In this document: one piece after another, positions 11,290 through 54,554 of the stretch
Position numbering within the stretch: position 1 is the stretch's first letter
Layout of the letters: the number at the start of each line of letters is the position of its first letter
Source: Candidatus Calditenuis fumarioli
GTDB lineage: Archaea > Thermoproteota > Nitrososphaeria_A > Caldarchaeales > Calditenuaceae
Direction: 5' to 3'
Assembly (NCBI GenBank): GCA_030059665.1
Contig: JANVYR010000001.1
Span: 416,001 to 480,000 of the forward strand
Length of the DNA stretch: 64,000 bases
Notes under the pieces: generated by a model
The model's input: the letters and a program-made list of their open reading frames with translations, nothing else
Told to the model about the DNA's origin: nothing
Database searches by the model: none
Translations under genes and position numbers: made by a program

Positions 11290-12759
11290 TCAGGTGGGCC
11301 TCAGCAACCTCACCTTCCTGACCCTCACGGAGGGGCCTCCGAACCACACGGGTATCGCCTGCATGGGCTCACCCTTGCCGCAGTAGCCCGCGGTCATCTC
11401 CAGGTCCTTGCCTACTGCGTCGATGGAGGAGTAGAGGCCCTTCGTCGTTATCTCGAGGATCGGTTTGTAAACTGGCTCAGCGAGACGGCCGTTCCTGATC
11501 AGGTACGCCTCGACGCCCGTGTAGCGCTGGTTCCACCTCTTGTCGTCGATGTTCCACTCGGAGTAGGTCTTGATGTAGACGCCGAAGGAGATGCCCTCGA
11601 TCAGCTCCTCAAGCGAGTGGTCGCCTGGCTTCATGTAGGTGTTCGCCATCCTCACGATGGGCTCCCGGTCGTAGGCGCTCGCCCTAGATGCGCCGTTGCT
11701 CTTGGTTCCGAGGACGGCCGCGGTCTCCCGGTTCTGGAGGAGCTCCCTCAGCACGCCCCGCTCGATCAGAACCCTCTCCCTCGCCTTGACGCCCTCCTCG
11801 TCGTAGAGGTAGAAGCCGTAGGAGCCCGGAAGCGTGGGGTCGTCGACGACCGTGACCGCATCGGATCCTATCCTGGTACCCAGGAGGTCCGGCTTGATGT
11901 AGGTCTCGCCGGCCTGAGCCGCCTCCCTTCCGAGCATCCTATCGGCCTCTCCGGGATGGCCCGCCGATTCGTGGCAGATCAACCCGACCACCTCTGGTCC
12001 GAGGACGACGTCCATCTCACCCTCAGGAGGCGCAATGCCCTTCCGGAGAACCAGGCCAACGGCCTCCGCGTCCTCCCTCAGGTAGTCGTCGAGCCTCCAC
12101 CTCTCGAACCCCTCCCACCCCCTGGACTCCCCTAGGTCCTTGTGCCTGAAGATCGACCTGCCGTCGGAGGCGAGCTGGTAGAAGAAGCTGATTGCGACCC
12201 TAGGGATCCAGGAGTAGACGTCGGCACCGTCAGAATTGATGACGTGCTTCTCCGTGTGGCCGCAGGTGAGGCCGATGAACCTAGATGGCGCCTCCACCCC
12301 CGAACTCCGGGCCCCCTCAAGCAGCCCCTGATCAGCGGCCCTCAGCGCCTCCACCCTGTCCTGGACGTCGACGTGCTCGAACCTCACCCTCGGCCTGACC
12401 AGCACTTTGTCTTTCCCGAGGTTTTCCTCGCTCATCTCAATGGGCCTCTTCACGAGCCTCGCCGATGCCCTTGCCAGCGCCACAGCCCTCTCGACGGCGT
12501 TCCTCACCGAGTTCTGCTTCAGCCTGTTGGTGGACGCGAACCCCATCGCGCCGTTGACGATGACCCTGACGGCGATGCCCGAGTTGACCGAGCTTCCTCC
12601 AGCGACGGGGAAACCGTTCCTGAGGCTCACCTCCTCGTGGTAGTCGAGCTGATACCTCGCCTCAGCGTAGCTCGCGCCGAGCGAAAGGGCCTTCTCGACC
12701 GCCGACCTCAGTAGGTCCTCCGGAGTCCCTCCGCGCTCCTCCTCTCCACGTCTCGCCAC
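11290..12759 (-). CDS. tldD: TldD-family metalloprotease
   Basis: HESAGHPGEAD metal motif, VVDDPT...YDEEG and RMANTY. Start position uncertain. Confidence 0.9.
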   Translation of the reverse strand: MARRGEEERGGTPEDLLRSAVEKALSLGASYAEARYQLDYHEEVSLRNGFPVAGGSSVNSGIAVRVIVNGAMGFASTNRLKQNSVRNAVERAVALARASARLVKRPIEMSEENLGKDKVLVRPRVRFEHVDVQDRVEALRAADQGLLEGARSSGVEAPSRFIGLTCGHTEKHVINSDGADVYSWIPRVAISFFYQLASDGRSIFRHKDLGESRGWEGFERWRLDDYLREDAEAVGLVLRKGIAPPEGEMDVVLGPEVVGLICHESAGHPGEADRMLGREAAQAGETYIKPDLLGTRIGSDAVTVVDDPTLPGSYGFYLYDEEGVKARERVLIERGVLRELLQNRETAAVLGTKSNGASRASAYDREPIVRMANTYMKPGDHSLEELIEGISFGVYIKTYSEWNIDDKRWNQRYTGVEAYLIRNGRLAEPVYKPILEITTKGLYSSIDAVGKDLEMTAGYCGKGEPMQAIPVWFGGPSVRVRKVRLLRPT

Positions 12760-13019
12760 CCCGAGCTCACCTCTTCCGCCATCCTCCTCGCGGTCTCAGT
12801 TATGGACTTTGCCCTCTCCAGCATCTCGGAGAGCTCTGGCCTGAGGTCGTCGGGAAGCTCGGGGTCCTTGAGGGCGTCCAATAGCGCGGCCGTCAGCTCC
12901 TCCGCCTTCGATTGGACGAAGTCGAGCCTCGATCCCGACCTGAGGAAAGACTCCAGGAGCTTGATCGTCTCGCGCGCCTCCTCGACGAGCCCCGTTAAAC
13001 TCTTCGCCCGTTCCGGCAT
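12708..13019 (-). CDS. Hypothetical helical protein
   Basis: 103 aa amphipathic helical pattern with host-like codons; overlaps the tldD start. Confidence 0.55.
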   Translation of the reverse strand: MPERAKSLTGLVEEARETIKLLESFLRSGSRLDFVQSKAEELTAALLDALKDPELPDDLRPELSEMLERAKSITETARRMAEEVSSGWRDVERRSAEGLRRTY

Positions 13020-13143
13020 CCTCGTCCATCAACTGGAGAGATCACCGTGTAATATGGATTCCCGGACCAACCGGCCCTTGCAGCAGGACGCACCTACATA
13101 TCGGCTGAAGCGGTGTTGTCTCAGGATGCGGGAAGGATTCCCG

Positions 13144-13875
13144 ATGGGCCTGGGGAGGGAGGAGCTCTACGCGATGCTGTACGAGTGCGTGGCGAGGTCG
13201 CCCGGTTTCCCCTCCCTCAAGGCGAAGGTCCTCGAGGTGGTGATGAGGAGGCCCTACGTCACGCAGCAGGAGCTCGCAGCAGCCCTGAACCTCACTCCGG
13301 GTCAGGCGCTGATCGCCCTCAGGTCCGTCAGGTTGTGGTGCCATGAGGTCGAGACTGAGGTGAGGCTCTCCCGCAGGATAACGCCGATCTACCGGAGGGG
13401 TGCCATAGGAGGGACCTTCGACAACCTTCACTTGGGCCACTTGGCGCTCCTGAACGCGGCCTTCAGGTCGGCGGAGCGCGTCTTCATCGGCCTAACCACC
13501 GACGACTTCGTCTCCTCAGTTGGGAAGCGCGGCGTCGCGCCCTACCAGGAGAGGAGGGAGGAGCTCGAGAGGGTGCTGGAGCGGTGGGGTTGGCTGAGCA
13601 GGGCCGAGATAGGAGCGCTCTCCGATGAGCTCGGGCCGCCAGCGGAGGATCCGTCGTTCGACGTCATCATCGGAAGCCCCTTCACGCTCGCCAACTGCCT
13701 CAAAGTCAACGCCGTCAGGATCGAGCGCGGCCTGCCGCCGATCGCTGTGGAGTTATCGCCGATGGTCCTGGCCGAGGACGGGTTGCCCCTCTCGAGCACG
13801 AGGATAAGGGCCGGGGAGGTGGACAGGTATGGGAGGCTCACAGGATCCCGAGCACGAGGAGGACCAACAGCGTGA
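13144..13875 (+). CDS. coaD: Phosphopantetheine adenylyltransferase (archaeal type) with N-terminal winged-HTH-like domain
   Basis: GGTFDNLHLGH, IGLTTDDF and LSSTRIRAGEVDRYG motifs, preceded by KVLEVVMRRPYVTQQELAAALNLTPGQALIALRSV. Start is ATG 13144 or 13126. Confidence 0.85.
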   Translation: MGLGREELYAMLYECVARSPGFPSLKAKVLEVVMRRPYVTQQELAAALNLTPGQALIALRSVRLWCHEVETEVRLSRRITPIYRRGAIGGTFDNLHLGHLALLNAAFRSAERVFIGLTTDDFVSSVGKRGVAPYQERREELERVLERWGWLSRAEIGALSDELGPPAEDPSFDVIIGSPFTLANCLKVNAVRIERGLPPIAVELSPMVLAEDGLPLSSTRIRAGEVDRYGRLTGSRARGGPTA

Positions 13876-14740
13876 CCGAGGCCGCCGAGAAGGCCCAGAG
13901 TCCGCTCGAGCCCGTCAGCCTCTTCATCGCCCAGACCGAGTAAACGACGAGCCAGAGCCAGGACGCGACCGACGCCGCGATCGAGACGGGATCCCGGCTG
14001 ATCGGAGGATAGAACCTGTAGGAGACAAGGGAGTCGTACGTTATCAGGTCGTATTTCGCCATCACGAGCTCCGCGTCGCCGATCGTTGTTATCTCGAGCC
14101 CTTTCCTGACGCTGACGTCGGACAGCCTCACGACCGGTCTGATAGAGCCCGGTTCTCCCGATCCGTTTCGAAGGGCTTCATCCCCTCCCTCGACGAACGC
14201 TGTGACGCGTTCGGCCCTCAGGATCAGGGCCTCTCCCTCGACGGTCACGTTTCCCTGCTGGACCAGCACGTAGGTCACGTTCTCGAGCTTAAGTCCCGTG
14301 AGCTCGAACCCTACCACATAGACGTCCCTCTCCGGGAGGGCTACGTTGTACGCGAGCAGGAATGCGGATGCGATGCCGACCGCGACGGTTGCATGGAGGA
14401 CGGCGCTCACCAGCTGCGCCGAGAAGCCCCGGGTGGGTTTGCTGACGTAAACGATCGTCGCCAAAACGAACATGGTGACGACCGTGCCGATGACGACGTA
14501 TCCCAGCCCGGAGAACGCAACGTCCCTCGGAGACGTGAACGGGAAGTAGACGCCGCTCAAGACCCCGTTGAAGGGGTTGATCCACCTGGTCTTCACGGTC
14601 AGGGAGTAGACGTAGGAAAGGGTCGCGACCGCCGATGTTAGCCCGAAGACGAGGAAGGCCCTCCTCATCCTGACCCCGACCTCGAGCTCCGACGCGAGCC
14701 TCCTGGGGTCGAGCACCCCGATGATCTCCGTCCATCGCAT
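13838..14740 (-). CDS. Polytopic membrane protein (Yip1-like topology with an inserted soluble domain)
   Basis: Several TM segments; ATG overlaps the nth stop (ATGA). Confidence 0.55.
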   Translation of the reverse strand: MRWTEIIGVLDPRRLASELEVGVRMRRAFLVFGLTSAVATLSYVYSLTVKTRWINPFNGVLSGVYFPFTSPRDVAFSGLGYVVIGTVVTMFVLATIVYVSKPTRGFSAQLVSAVLHATVAVGIASAFLLAYNVALPERDVYVVGFELTGLKLENVTYVLVQQGNVTVEGEALILRAERVTAFVEGGDEALRNGSGEPGSIRPVVRLSDVSVRKGLEITTIGDAELVMAKYDLITYDSLVSYRFYPPISRDPVSIAASVASWLWLVVYSVWAMKRLTGSSGLWAFSAASVTLLVLLVLGIL

Positions 14741-15465
14741 CAACTGCCGCCAGCCGCCCGACGATAATAACCGCACAGGTCAGAGAGGACGCAACGGTCG
14801 CAGAGGGGCCTCCTGCTCCTGCAGACGGAGCGGCCGTGGGCTATCAGGAGGAGGTGGGCCTCGTACCTCGTCCCGGGTGGGAAGACCTCCTCGAGCCTGC
14901 TTTTGATGCGCTCGTAACTCTCCCGCTCACCGACGAGACCGAGCCTCTGGGCTACTCTCCTGACGTGGGTGTCGACCGGTATAGTGTCGAGAGTTCCGGT
15001 GCTCGAGAGGAGGACGTCGACCGTCTTCGGGCCTATGCCCTTGACCCTCAGAAGCGCTTCCCTCGCCGCGTCCGGTCCGCTCTCCAGGAGGCCTTTGAGG
15101 TCGGGATCTCCAAGCCTCAGCGCCAGCGCAGCGAGCTCCCTTATGGCCCGGGCCTTGGCATCCGCGAGGCCCGCAACCCTGATCGCACGGGCTATCCTCC
15201 TGAGGCCTGCCCTCACGAGGGCCTCGGGGGTCAAACCGACCGACCGCTCCAGCTCGGAGTAGGCCCTCATCGCTGCCTTATCGGTCGAGTTCTGAGAGAG
15301 GATCGTCGCCACGAGGACCCTGAAGGGGGAGCCGGTGGTCAGGTTGACGTAGCTCGAGACGAAGTCCTCCATTTTCAGCCTGTGAGCGCGCCTGAGCCTC
15401 TCGAGGACCTCCTTTCCCAGATCGCCCCCACCCTTGATGGCCCCGCCTATCCCCTCCCCGCTCAC
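14740..15465 (-). CDS. nth: Endonuclease III
   Basis: ILSQNSTD, HhH LLRVKGIGPKT, PVDTHV and 4Fe-4S motif CRSRRPLCDRCVLSDLC. Start uncertain (up to 15507). Confidence 0.92.
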   Translation of the reverse strand: MSGEGIGGAIKGGGDLGKEVLERLRRAHRLKMEDFVSSYVNLTTGSPFRVLVATILSQNSTDKAAMRAYSELERSVGLTPEALVRAGLRRIARAIRVAGLADAKARAIRELAALALRLGDPDLKGLLESGPDAAREALLRVKGIGPKTVDVLLSSTGTLDTIPVDTHVRRVAQRLGLVGERESYERIKSRLEEVFPPGTRYEAHLLLIAHGRSVCRSRRPLCDRCVLSDLCGYYRRAAGGS

Positions 15466-51940: not shown

Positions 51941-51995
51941 CGACCATCACGTCCCATCAGCATGTGTTAAGGGTGATATCGCCAACCACGGAGAT

Positions 51996-52045
51996 TGTTA
52001 CGTAACATACGTAAGATATTTAAGCGGTAAACGGTTAAATACGTA
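51996..52045. promoter_or_regulatory. Candidate operator: perfect palindrome TGTTACGTAACA plus two more TACGTA copies in the thiL/pok divergent promoter region
   Basis: TACGTA at 51999, 52008 and 52040, interleaved with TATA-like TTTAAG and TTAAAT. Confidence 0.55.
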
Positions 52046-52059
52046 CCACTATATACTGG

Positions 52060-52944
52060 GTGAGGTTGCGCCTGAAAAGGCAGGAGGAGCTGGCGATCCC
52101 CTCGCACGTCACCGGCTTCTTCGTCCCGAGGTGGGCGAGCGATCCGCTTGAGACCGGTTCGGTGGGCGCGGGGCTGGTACTGGAACCCGGGATCTCCTTC
52201 GGCTACAGGCGCTCCGGGAGGAGCTCGGTCAGGCTGAACGGTCAGGAGTTCCGGTCCGTGGCCTTGATGGGGCTCCTGCCTCAGGGGATCGAGGTCCGGG
52301 TCAGGTCCGAGCTCCCGGTCGGTGCGGGGTACGCGATGAGCGCATCGCTCGCTCTGGCGTGCTCCATCTCAGCGGAGCTTGCGGCCGGAGGGCTCGACCT
52401 GCTCGGGGCCTTCAGGAGGGCCCACGTCGCGGAGGTACGGGCGATGACGGGCCTGGGCGACGTGCTCGCGCTGCACGGAGGCCGTGGGCTAGTGGTCCGC
52501 CTGAAGCCCGGCGCTCCGGGGATCGGTGAGGTCCAGGTGATAGACGTGCCGGAGGACGTGGTCGTCGTGAGCGCGGTCCTCGGAAGCATGTCGACGACGG
52601 AGATGCTGACGAGGTACGCTGACAGGATCAGGCACCACGGCTCGGAGGCCTTCAGACGGTTCCTCTCCGACCCATCCCTCGAGAGGTTCCTGGAGTGCTC
52701 GCGGGACTTCGCCAGGGGCGTCGGCTTCCTCACGCCGGATCTGGAGGAGCGCGTCCTGCCCATCCGTGACCTGCTCCTCGGTTACTCGGTGAAGAAGCGC
52801 GTCCTCTTCGCGGTAACGCCTCTCAAGCACCTGGAAGAGGTCGCATCGCACCTCTCCTCCGAGTTCGGCCAGGTTAGGGTCCAGAGGGTGGGTGACGGGA
52901 CTTGGTTGAGATACCTCGAAGCCATCCTCGCTATCGCTCGCTGA
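52060..52944 (+). CDS. pok: Pantoate kinase
   Basis: PSHVTGFF, TGSVGAG, LPVGAGYAMSAS, AHVAEV and TGLGDV motifs (GHMP family). Confidence 0.88.
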   Translation: MRLRLKRQEELAIPSHVTGFFVPRWASDPLETGSVGAGLVLEPGISFGYRRSGRSSVRLNGQEFRSVALMGLLPQGIEVRVRSELPVGAGYAMSASLALACSISAELAAGGLDLLGAFRRAHVAEVRAMTGLGDVLALHGGRGLVVRLKPGAPGIGEVQVIDVPEDVVVVSAVLGSMSTTEMLTRYADRIRHHGSEAFRRFLSDPSLERFLECSRDFARGVGFLTPDLEERVLPIRDLLLGYSVKKRVLFAVTPLKHLEEVASHLSSEFGQVRVQRVGDGTWLRYLEAILAIAR

Positions 52945-53678
52945 TGGAGAGGGAGCGGATCGTCAAGGGTCTGACCTCGGGGATCGTGGTCCCTGAGGGG
53001 TTGCTGGCCCACGGCAGGGGCGAGGCACTCGACTACCTTCTGGGGGAGGAGACGACGCCGGTCGCGATGGAGGCGATCAAGGCCGCGGCGGCCCTTCTGC
53101 TTCTCTCCCGGAGACCCGTGATATCCGTCAACGGAAACGCTGCAGCGCTGGTGGGAGAGGAGCTGGTGAGGCTATCGAGGGAGCTGGGCGCACCGCTCGA
53201 GGTCAACCTGTTCTACCGATCGGCCGATCGAATCCGGAGGATAAAGGAGCACCTGCTCTCCCTCGGCGCGGAGGAGGTCCTGACCGCCGAGGAGGACCTG
53301 GTAGAGGTCCCCGGACTCGAGAGCGCCCGGCGCCTGGTCAGCAGGAGGGGCATCTACTCGGCCGACACGGTGCTCGTCATGATGGAGGACGGCGACCGGA
53401 CCGAGAAGCTCGTGGCCATGGGAAAGAAGGTGATCGCGGTGGACCTGAACCCGCTCTCGAGGACGGCGAGGGCCGCGACCATCACGATCGTCGACAACGT
53501 CACCAGGTGCATACCTCTGCTGAGGGAGCGCGTTGCCGAGATGAGGCGGCTCAGCAGGGAGGAGCTGGATTCGATCGTCCGGGGCTTCGACAACCAGCGG
53601 AACCTGAGGGAGTCGATCGCCCTGATCTCGAAAAGGCTGGCACGCCTCTCGGGTTATGAGGAGCCGCTCTCGGACTGA
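52902..53678 (+). CDS. pps: 4-phosphopantoate--beta-alanine ligase
   Basis: IPRSHPRYRSL, AHGRGEALDYLLGE, ISVNGN, EDGDR and DLNPLSRTA motifs. Confidence 0.92.
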   Translation: MVEIPRSHPRYRSLMERERIVKGLTSGIVVPEGLLAHGRGEALDYLLGEETTPVAMEAIKAAAALLLLSRRPVISVNGNAAALVGEELVRLSRELGAPLEVNLFYRSADRIRRIKEHLLSLGAEEVLTAEEDLVEVPGLESARRLVSRRGIYSADTVLVMMEDGDRTEKLVAMGKKVIAVDLNPLSRTARAATITIVDNVTRCIPLLRERVAEMRRLSREELDSIVRGFDNQRNLRESIALISKRLARLSGYEEPLSD

Positions 53679-53681
53679 GGT

Positions 53682-54554
53682 GTGTCGGGCCTGACGGAGA
53701 AGCTTACCGCTCGGGACGTGATCCGGATGAAGGCGAAGGGCAGGCGCATCGCGATGATCACCGCCTACGACTACCCCACCGCGAGGCTCGCGGACGAAGC
53801 AGGCGTTGACGTGATACTGGTGGGAGACTCGGCGGCCATGGTCGTGCTCGGCATGAAAGACACGAGGTTCATCGGGATGGAGGAGATGCTGGTCTTCTGC
53901 AGGGCCGTCAGCCGAGCGGTGAGCAGGGCCCTCGTGGTGGGAGACATGCCGTTCATGAGCTACCAGGCCTCCACCGAGCAGGCGGTCCTGAACGCGGGTC
54001 GGATGGTGAGGGAGGGAGGCGTCGACGCGGTGAAGATCGAGGGCGGCCGGGAGTACGCGGACGTCGTGAGGGCCATCGTGAGGGCCGGGATTCCCGTGAT
54101 GGGCCACGTCGGGATGACCCCGCAGTCGGCAGCTTCCTCAACCGGCTTCAGGCTTCGTGGCAAGACCGCTGAGGAGGCCGAAGCGATAGTGCGCGATGCG
54201 GAGGAGATCGCCAGAGCGGGGGCCTTCTCGATCGTGCTGGAGTTCACCACCGCGGAGGTGGCAGAGTACCTCTCCGAGACCCTCGAGATACCGGTTATAG
54301 GCGTCGGAGCGGGGCCTCGATGCGACGGCCAGGTCCTGGTGCTGCACGACGTGCTCGGCCTCTACGAGAACTCTCCACCCTTCGCGAAGAGGTACGCCGA
54401 CCTGAGGTCAGAGGTCCTCGGCGCGATCAGACGGTACGTCGAGGAGGTCCGGAGCGGCGCCTTCCCTGACGAAGGTAGGTTCTGGAGGATGGGAGACGAG
54501 GAGAGGGAGGAGCTGAGGAGGAGGCTGGCGCGGAGAGAGGGCGGCGCCGGTTGA
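53682..54554 (+). CDS. panB: Ketopantoate hydroxymethyltransferase
   Basis: TAYDY, ILVGDS, DMPFMSY, AVKIEGG, GHVGMTPQ and DGQVLV motifs. Confidence 0.95.
   Translation: MSGLTEKLTARDVIRMKAKGRRIAMITAYDYPTARLADEAGVDVILVGDSAAMVVLGMKDTRFIGMEEMLVFCRAVSRAVSRALVVGDMPFMSYQASTEQAVLNAGRMVREGGVDAVKIEGGREYADVVRAIVRAGIPVMGHVGMTPQSAASSTGFRLRGKTAEEAEAIVRDAEEIARAGAFSIVLEFTTAEVAEYLSETLEIPVIGVGAGPRCDGQVLVLHDVLGLYENSPPFAKRYADLRSEVLGAIRRYVEEVRSGAFPDEGRFWRMGDEEREELRRRLARREGGAG

Follow-up and report, generated by a model that had tools for sequence, protein, structure and literature searches.

Introduction

Phosphopantetheine adenylyltransferase (PPAT), the product of coaD, converts 4'-phosphopantetheine and ATP into dephospho-CoA. 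NadR and BirA are precedents for regulators that join a helix-turn-helix (HTH) domain to an enzyme. Among such proteins, RbkR, in which a winged HTH (wHTH) domain is followed by a CTP-dependent riboflavin kinase, has the same order as the protein described here, with the HTH-type domain at the N-terminus and the cofactor-pathway enzyme behind it; NadR, BirA and ThiR can be compared with it by analogy. RbkR reads DNA through the polar residues Ser38-Ser41 of helix 3 and through its wing (PMC5397151). The operators of RbkR are palindromic and lie upstream of the genes of the pathway and, in 36 genomes, apparently also upstream of rbkR's own transcription unit (PMC5397151).

Described archaeal PPATs of the type of PAB0944 (Pyrococcus abyssi), TK2128 (Thermococcus kodakarensis) and 3do8 (Archaeoglobus fulgidus) are proteins of about 150-170 aa that begin a few residues ahead of the GGTFD motif. 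PPAT is also found joined to a second module, as in PPAT-DUF359 (the archaeal DPCK, arCOG04076; PMC6650551) and in PPAT-NTPase (PF01931), where the partners are C-terminal enzymes. Rosetta-stone reasoning takes a PPAT fusion as a hint of a functional link (PMC6650551). As for control of the pathway, archaeal CoA synthesis is known to be regulated only by feedback inhibition of ketopantoate reductase (PMC6650551), and no control is known at PPAT.

In this study, we analyzed a stretch of 64,000 nucleotides of Candidatus Calditenuis fumarioli (contig JANVYR010000001.1, positions 416,001 to 480,000), hereafter the window. Its coaD gene codes for a PPAT with about 80 more N-terminal residues than the enzymes named above, and these residues make up a separate helical domain. 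Unlike the partners in PPAT-DUF359 and PPAT-NTPase, the additional module is small, non-enzymatic and N-terminal, and it belongs to no Pfam family. An initial annotation took the domain for a winged HTH and proposed a DNA-binding, CoA-sensing regulator. It also held that archaeal CoaD is normally a single-domain protein, which is only roughly true given that PPAT-NTPase and PPAT-DUF359 fusions are common (PMC6650551). Our results confirm that the fusion is real. On balance, the N-terminal domain is probably an HTH-derived, non-DNA-binding module with a structural or regulatory role in PPAT.

Results

The coaD gene and its catalytic domain

The reading frame is open on the + strand from ATG 13126 or ATG 13144 to the stop at 13875 (Table 1), and residue numbers are counted throughout from ATG 13144. 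The archaeal PPAT model NF001985 matches residues 84-234 with 142.9 bits (cut-off 104), and PF01467 matches with 54 bits (threshold 21). The predicted structure superimposes on the Archaeoglobus PPAT homologue 3do8_B over 122 residues (Z 17.9, rmsd 1.7), and Foldseek finds a match for the catalytic domain at E 1.4e-8. In alignment A1, residues G90, T91, F92, D93, H96, G98 and H99 of the nucleotide-binding motif are invariant; in the wider alignments A3 and A7 all of them except D93 are still so. Within the SSTRIR motif, R220 and R222 are invariant, while S217 and I221 are nearly invariant. In profile, in the HxGH and ISxTRIR motifs and in fold, the catalytic domain is like those of PAB0944, TK2128 and 3do8, and this part of the protein is an ordinary member of the archaeal PPATs.

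The 1.57-Mb genome (91% complete) contains only two other PF01467 genes and, because these read as RibL-like and NMNAT-like, the ORF is considered the only PPAT of the genome. The remaining CoA pathway was also found, including pok-pps-panB (52060-54554), coaBC and a gene for a DUF359-type DPCK. The gene is predicted to code for the housekeeping PPAT and is the sole candidate in the genome for this step.

Table 1. Features of the coaD locus, in positions of the window.
Feature	Position	Strand	Description
Full ORF	13126..13875	+	249 aa from ATG 13126; HTH-like N-terminal domain plus PPAT
Second in-frame ATG	13144	+	243-aa product; start used in the initial annotation
TATA-like box TACATAT	13095..13101	+	About 28 nt before ATG 13126; read from the sequence
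N-terminal domain	13126..13386	+	Residues 1-81; from the AlphaFold2 model, conservation and dN/dS
Three-helix HTH-like core	13207..13329	+	Residues 22-62; the hydrophobic helix 52-62 takes the place of the recognition helix
Acidic connecting helix	13339..13377	+	Residues 66-78, E-V-E-x-E conserved; occupies the place of a wing and runs into Rossmann strand 1
PPAT catalytic domain	13390..13845	+	Residues 83-234; from NF001985, 3do8_B and Foldseek
GGTFDNLHLGH	13408..13440	+	Nucleotide-binding (H/T)xGH motif
SSTRIR	13792..13809	+	C-terminal motif of the nucleotidyltransferase fold
Divergent 103-aa helical ORF	12708..13019	-	Shares a 106-nt intergenic region with coaD; conserved neighbour

Two in-frame start codons precede the domain, and ATG 13126 is more likely to be used than ATG 13144. 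The database protein P0002 begins at the position equal to 13126, and the orthologues start 10 residues ahead of a conserved RE[ED]L, exactly matching this codon. Relatives have TAATAC or TAATAT at an equal distance from the start (L001/L002 and L013/L014). The spacing of the TATA-like box suggests a leaderless mRNA in which the N-terminal domain would be contained.

In other archaea, plain PPATs of about 160 aa function with no extension (PMC6650551), and the N-terminal region might be seen as a functionless passenger, or its start as mis-called, with the true start of the enzyme near residue 80. However, we consider this highly improbable. The TATA-like box stands ahead of ATG 13126, in relatives too; the region adopts a high-confidence predicted fold, and the extension is kept across the class. 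Moreover, the region is constrained to a similar degree as the enzyme: in eight informative close pairs, dN/dS is 0.04-0.27 for the N-terminal domain and 0.05-0.29 for the catalytic domain. Homologues that share the extension can be aligned from their first residues on, and no internal Met is conserved, M34 included. The start alignment, the dN/dS values and the lack of a conserved internal Met effectively exclude a downstream start of translation, which the initial annotation had named as one of the findings that would overturn its reading. The N-terminal domain is translated and under purifying selection.

The divergent ORF upstream of coaD has a TATA-like box of its own, TAATAT at 13050-13055, and overlaps the start of tldD by 52 nt. 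A similar ORF of 105 aa occupies the same place in relatives (L006-L009), and neither Pfam nor NCBIfam returned a match for the ORF of the window. At the other end, a convergent gene on the - strand (13838-14776) overlaps the last 38 nt of coaD and codes for a predicted membrane protein of 312 aa without family; it is kept at the same place in relatives, followed by the gene for endonuclease III.

Fold of the N-terminal domain

The full-length AlphaFold2 model, built on a 23-row alignment, reaches a pLDDT of 94 and a pTM of 0.90, with pLDDT values of 94-97 in the N-terminal domain. It predicts five helices (5-17, 22-35, 41-48, 52-62 and 66-78), after which Rossmann strand 1 begins. The HTH pattern noticed in the initial annotation, which includes KVLEVVMRRPYVTQQELAAALNLTPGQALIALRSV at residues 28-62, corresponds to a three-helix HTH-like core. 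The winged part of that description does not stand: no beta-hairpin wing follows helix 3 in the model, where a 3-residue bridge (63-65) leads into helix 66-78. As modelled, the domain resembles an HTH preceded by one extra helix and lacks a wing.

Profile searches also place the domain at the margin of known HTH families. HTH_24 was matched at residues 28-54 (query 1-85) below its Pfam gathering threshold (20.6 bits versus 21.9, E 3.3e-4). Weak matches to the same family were found in 8 of 25 family members (E 1.7e-4 to 0.1), and none was seen over threshold. In an exhaustive profile search, the profile of the domain matched classical repeated HTH_24 proteins at E 3e-9. When PDB sequences were compared with the profile of alignment A6, nothing meaningful appeared, the top match being a designed repeat protein (E 0.036). 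Pfam and NCBIfam hold no family either for the domain or for the stand-alone homologues described below.

Structural comparisons gave a similar picture. The isolated domain found no PDB match at E <= 0.001 with Foldseek (best about 1). A wide VIA-align search returned weak fold matches with Z 4.5-5.5, among them Lrp/AsnC, IclR, DeoR, sigma region 4, ScpB and ESCRT-II, and the best value, 5.5, is no higher than a common helical arrangement can give. Nearly all of these weak neighbours are HTH or winged-helix proteins that act as DNA-binding regulators. The NadR structure 8x7f aligns with the catalytic domain only. In a shape search of the ESM Atlas, models of eukaryotic CoA synthase align from residue 1 or 4, with a TM-score that does not exceed the one obtained with just the catalytic domain. 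Altogether, three of the four testable wHTH features are missing, namely a score over threshold, the wing and the DNA-reading residues, and the domain should not be classified as a DNA-binding domain of the wHTH type. The domain family is undescribed, and its fusion makes the protein a novel form of a familiar enzyme.

When folded alone, with the same 8 homologues, the domain keeps its helices with a pLDDT of only 74. The higher pLDDT in the full-length model suggests that the domain is stabilized by contact with the enzyme. A rigid packing of the domain on the enzyme is predicted, and not a tethered DNA-binding domain.

Residue conservation and charge

The chemistry of the domain was examined in 29 fused sequences. 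All of them (100%) have hydrophobic residues at positions 55-59 of helix 3, 76% have an acidic residue at position 54 (E54 here) and 52% have one at position 61, and the only invariant basic residue is R63. Helix 5-17 is as hydrophobic as helix 52-62. From this pattern, residues 55-59 would be buried. The first 80 residues contain about three conserved basic positions (17, 26 and 63) and at least seven conserved acidic ones. In the connecting helix, all 29 sequences have an acidic residue at E68 and at E72, and 97% have one at position 71. A caveat of the initial annotation, that the recognition helix is hydrophobic and possibly vestigial, turns out to be the better reading.

Net charge of the N-terminal domain ranges from -9 to 0 in the 22 sequences outside the genus and from 0 to +4 in the 7 within it; the domain is net acidic, or at most neutral, in 22 of 29 sequences and basic only in this genus. 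Within the genus, the pI is 7.0-9.7, or 9.4-10.4 when the boundaries are shifted slightly and a partly different set of sequences is used. The basic pI is a local feature of this genus, with its 62% GC. The catalytic domain is mostly basic, and the two domains are complementary in charge.

These properties bear directly on the idea that the protein is a bifunctional enzyme-repressor, in which the HTH would bind operators of CoA genes, such as the TACGTAA boxes of pok, while PPAT would sense CoA, dephospho-CoA or ATP. The HTH_24-like core, the fact that the nearest folds are HTH regulators and the basic character of the domain in this genus are what would be expected of such a protein. However, the canonical DNA-reading positions, here residues 55-59 with E54 beside them, are hydrophobic or acidic class-wide, unlike their counterparts Ser38-Ser41 of RbkR (PMC5397151). 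The absence of the beta2-beta3 wing that RbkR possesses, the net acidic character of the domain in most genera and the predicted rigid packing also count against it, as do the stand-alone homologues, which stop after a helix 3 that reads PLGEALVILYEL.

Operator-like boxes at the pok promoter

Only one good candidate for an operator came to light, at the pok promoter. In the thiL/pok intergenic region (51941-52059), the tandem palindromic boxes TTACGTAAC-A-TACGTAAG occupy positions 51998-52015, and a third TACGTA at 52040-52045 overlaps TTAAATA, the TATA-like element of pok. This three-box cluster (51998-52046) is unique in the genome. Upstream of pok, TACGTAA boxes recur in three of the four genera of the family, g1 (7/7), g2 (3/3) and g4 (1/1), and are absent in g3. 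An assignment of the boxes to thiL, the divergent neighbour in this genome, was rejected, since g2 keeps them at pok without an adjoining thiL. The three-box element makes a good candidate for the operator of pok-pps-panB.

An element that is palindromic, conserved at pok in g1, g2 and g4, unique in the genome and travelling with pok rather than with thiL counts in favor of the enzyme-repressor. So does the literature searched, as it gives no transcriptional regulator of archaeal CoA synthesis, only the feedback on ketopantoate reductase (PMC6650551). Nevertheless, the link to PPAT is missing. We found no TACGTA boxes near coaD, coaBC or the DPCK gene, and the region upstream of coaD has neither a palindrome nor a motif in common with the pok promoter or with other CoA genes; RbkR, in contrast, has operators that apparently include its own unit. 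In addition, the helix-3 type of g3 is that of g2 and g4, yet g3 is devoid of boxes, and the subclades of g1 differ in helix 3, yet all of them keep the boxes. Because boxes and helix 3 do not co-vary, no tie can be drawn between the pok boxes and the N-terminal domain.

Taken together, the lack of a wing, the hydrophobic and acidic helix 3, the acidic or neutral domain outside the genus, the lack of an operator at its own promoter and the missing covariation with the pok boxes speak against the DNA-binding, CoA-sensing regulator that was first proposed, and we judge the enzyme-repressor to be unlikely. The protein is not to be filed as a regulator of the RbkR/NadR type. Binding in a non-canonical manner, by which PPAT would repress pok-pps-panB through the boxes at 51998-52015 and 52040-52045 in response to CoA or dephospho-CoA, is quite unlikely. 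If true, this would be the first case of a transcriptional regulator for archaeal coenzyme A synthesis.

Distribution of the fusion

The distribution across genomes, one of the checks put forward with the initial annotation, shows that the fusion is class-wide. The profile of the N-terminal domain was found in 73 of the 76 genomes of the Caldarchaeales-type order/class, in all 43 high-quality genomes and in 15/15 genera; the close relatives of the window genome belong to Calditenuaceae. The matching open frames of this class are mostly 240-300 aa long, and the PPAT motifs come directly after the domain in 30/30 orthologous loci inspected. In longer proteins with the domain, the sole architecture found is the domain plus PF01467. 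Outside the class, no fusion was found in a phylum sample of 401 genomes. A 245-aa open frame of genome G394 was rejected as a candidate, being a HAD hydrolase with chance similarity. Public records annotate the fusion proteins simply as PPAT, and our literature search found no paper mentioning the fusion. Caldarchaeales genomes have one match to the domain each, save two, and to judge from these matches no stand-alone copy is left in this order.

Stand-alone homologues in Bathyarchaeia

In the same 401-genome sample, the domain also occurs as a stand-alone ORF of about 74 aa (profile E values from 1e-13 to 1e-23). It was found in 25/27 genomes of family f14, in 4/9 of f18 and in four smaller families; none was found in the 61 genomes of f5 or in most other families of the sample. 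Public names place these proteins (e.g., P0076-P0079) in Bathyarchaeia. In databases, 1,645 clusters match the stand-alone protein at E <= 1e-3, and the top 120 do so with at least 76% identity; the annotation is 'hypothetical' or consists of inconsistent automatic names (S25, TFE, riboflavin kinase).

The stand-alone proteins are homologous to residues ~3-64 of the fused domain, with identities of 40-44% to the N-terminal domains of other Caldarchaeales families and of 29% to that of the window. Their sequence contains LWPILVETVH, and they end directly after helix 3, without the acidic connecting helix. They are unfused and do not adjoin coaD: the PPATs of the genomes that bear them are plain 160-aa proteins encoded elsewhere, not beside the orphan gene. 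When the complex between a 74-aa protein of Bathyarchaeia and the PPAT encoded in its own genome was predicted (alignments A6 and A7), the score was 0.00, which is no verdict and counts as evidence neither way.

Gene neighbourhoods offer a different perspective. A gene for Rpb5/RpoH lies within about 4 kb of the orphan gene in 11/12 Bathyarchaeia loci (L056-L067, e.g., L059:4081-4305) and is convergent where adjacent; the Rpb5/RpoH gene of those loci has an Mrr_cat-like domain at its N-terminus. Upstream of the orphan gene, f18 and f32 have a thiolase-DUF35 pair on the same strand.

This proximity raises the question of whether the domain is an adaptor to a partner outside CoA synthesis, for instance the transcription machinery, in the manner of a TFE-alpha-like extended winged helix, with PPAT merely as its carrier or tethered to it. 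The strong conservation of the stand-alone proteins, the extra N-terminal helix, which is the layout of an 'extended' HTH, and the name TFIIE alpha among some JGI automatic names would fit an adaptor as well as the neighbouring Rpb5/RpoH gene does. However, the directly adjacent RpoH genes are convergent and form no operon, and the proximity may be inherited synteny. The automatic names disagree with one another, and no TFIIE_alpha Pfam match is listed at E <= 0.1. TFE, Rpo13 and RNA polymerase chains are absent among the top fold matches listed, although this proves nothing. Furthermore, with no stand-alone copy in Caldarchaeales, the function in this order has to be compatible with a domain that is always joined to PPAT. 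We find an adaptor of this kind distinctly unlikely.

Discussion

The results of our study are best accounted for by a PPAT that has gained an HTH-derived module which probably does not bind DNA. The first 80 residues or so would form a compact five-helix domain on a degenerate HTH_24-like core that appears to have lost both the wing and the polar DNA-reading surface. Most likely, the domain packs on the catalytic domain and acts by protein contacts, and binding to an operator is probably not among its functions. This reading is based on the hydrophobic, core-like helix 3, the charge complementarity of the two domains and the higher confidence of the model that includes the enzyme (pTM 0.90). 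Possible roles include stability of the enzyme at high temperature, its oligomeric state, docking of a partner or allosteric control of PPAT. As for its origin, the domain probably goes back to a small protein that stood alone in the Bathyarchaeia/Caldarchaeia lineage and was joined to PPAT in the common ancestor of the Caldarchaeales-type class. On the other hand, several observations count against a module without DNA binding: the fold is HTH-like and its neighbours are mostly DNA-binding regulators, the domain is mildly basic in this genus, there are precedents of enzyme-HTH regulators, and the conserved operator-like element at pok has no assigned binder.

A constrained extra domain on the only PPAT of a whole archaeal class is relevant beyond this locus. 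Because the same domain is fused to PPAT, the orphan family of Bathyarchaeia gains its first functional lead, toward PPAT and CoA metabolism. The case also calls for caution in annotation, as the fusion of an HTH-like sequence signature to an enzyme is not sufficient to identify a protein as a regulator. With regard to regulation at the level of the enzyme, the full-length protein and a version with residues 1-81 deleted are a concrete pair of constructs.

Two further PPAT arrangements were noticed along the way. In a genome of Bathyarchaeia (G392; L068:818-2235), the gene for a plain PPAT of 160 aa shares 4 nt with the end of a 312-aa ORF, whose sequence suggests a GHMP-type pantoate kinase and hence a pok-coaD operon in that lineage. 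The metagenomic protein P0043 (229 aa) consists of a plain N-terminal PPAT and a C-terminal extension of about 85 aa that contains GELYGYRMQKLYENKFGHISLRLVYYHLSRGVKEGIF. Pfam found no match for this extension at E <= 1; by eye, it may be a PadR-like winged helix, and the protein may represent a PPAT/HTH-like fusion in the opposite order.
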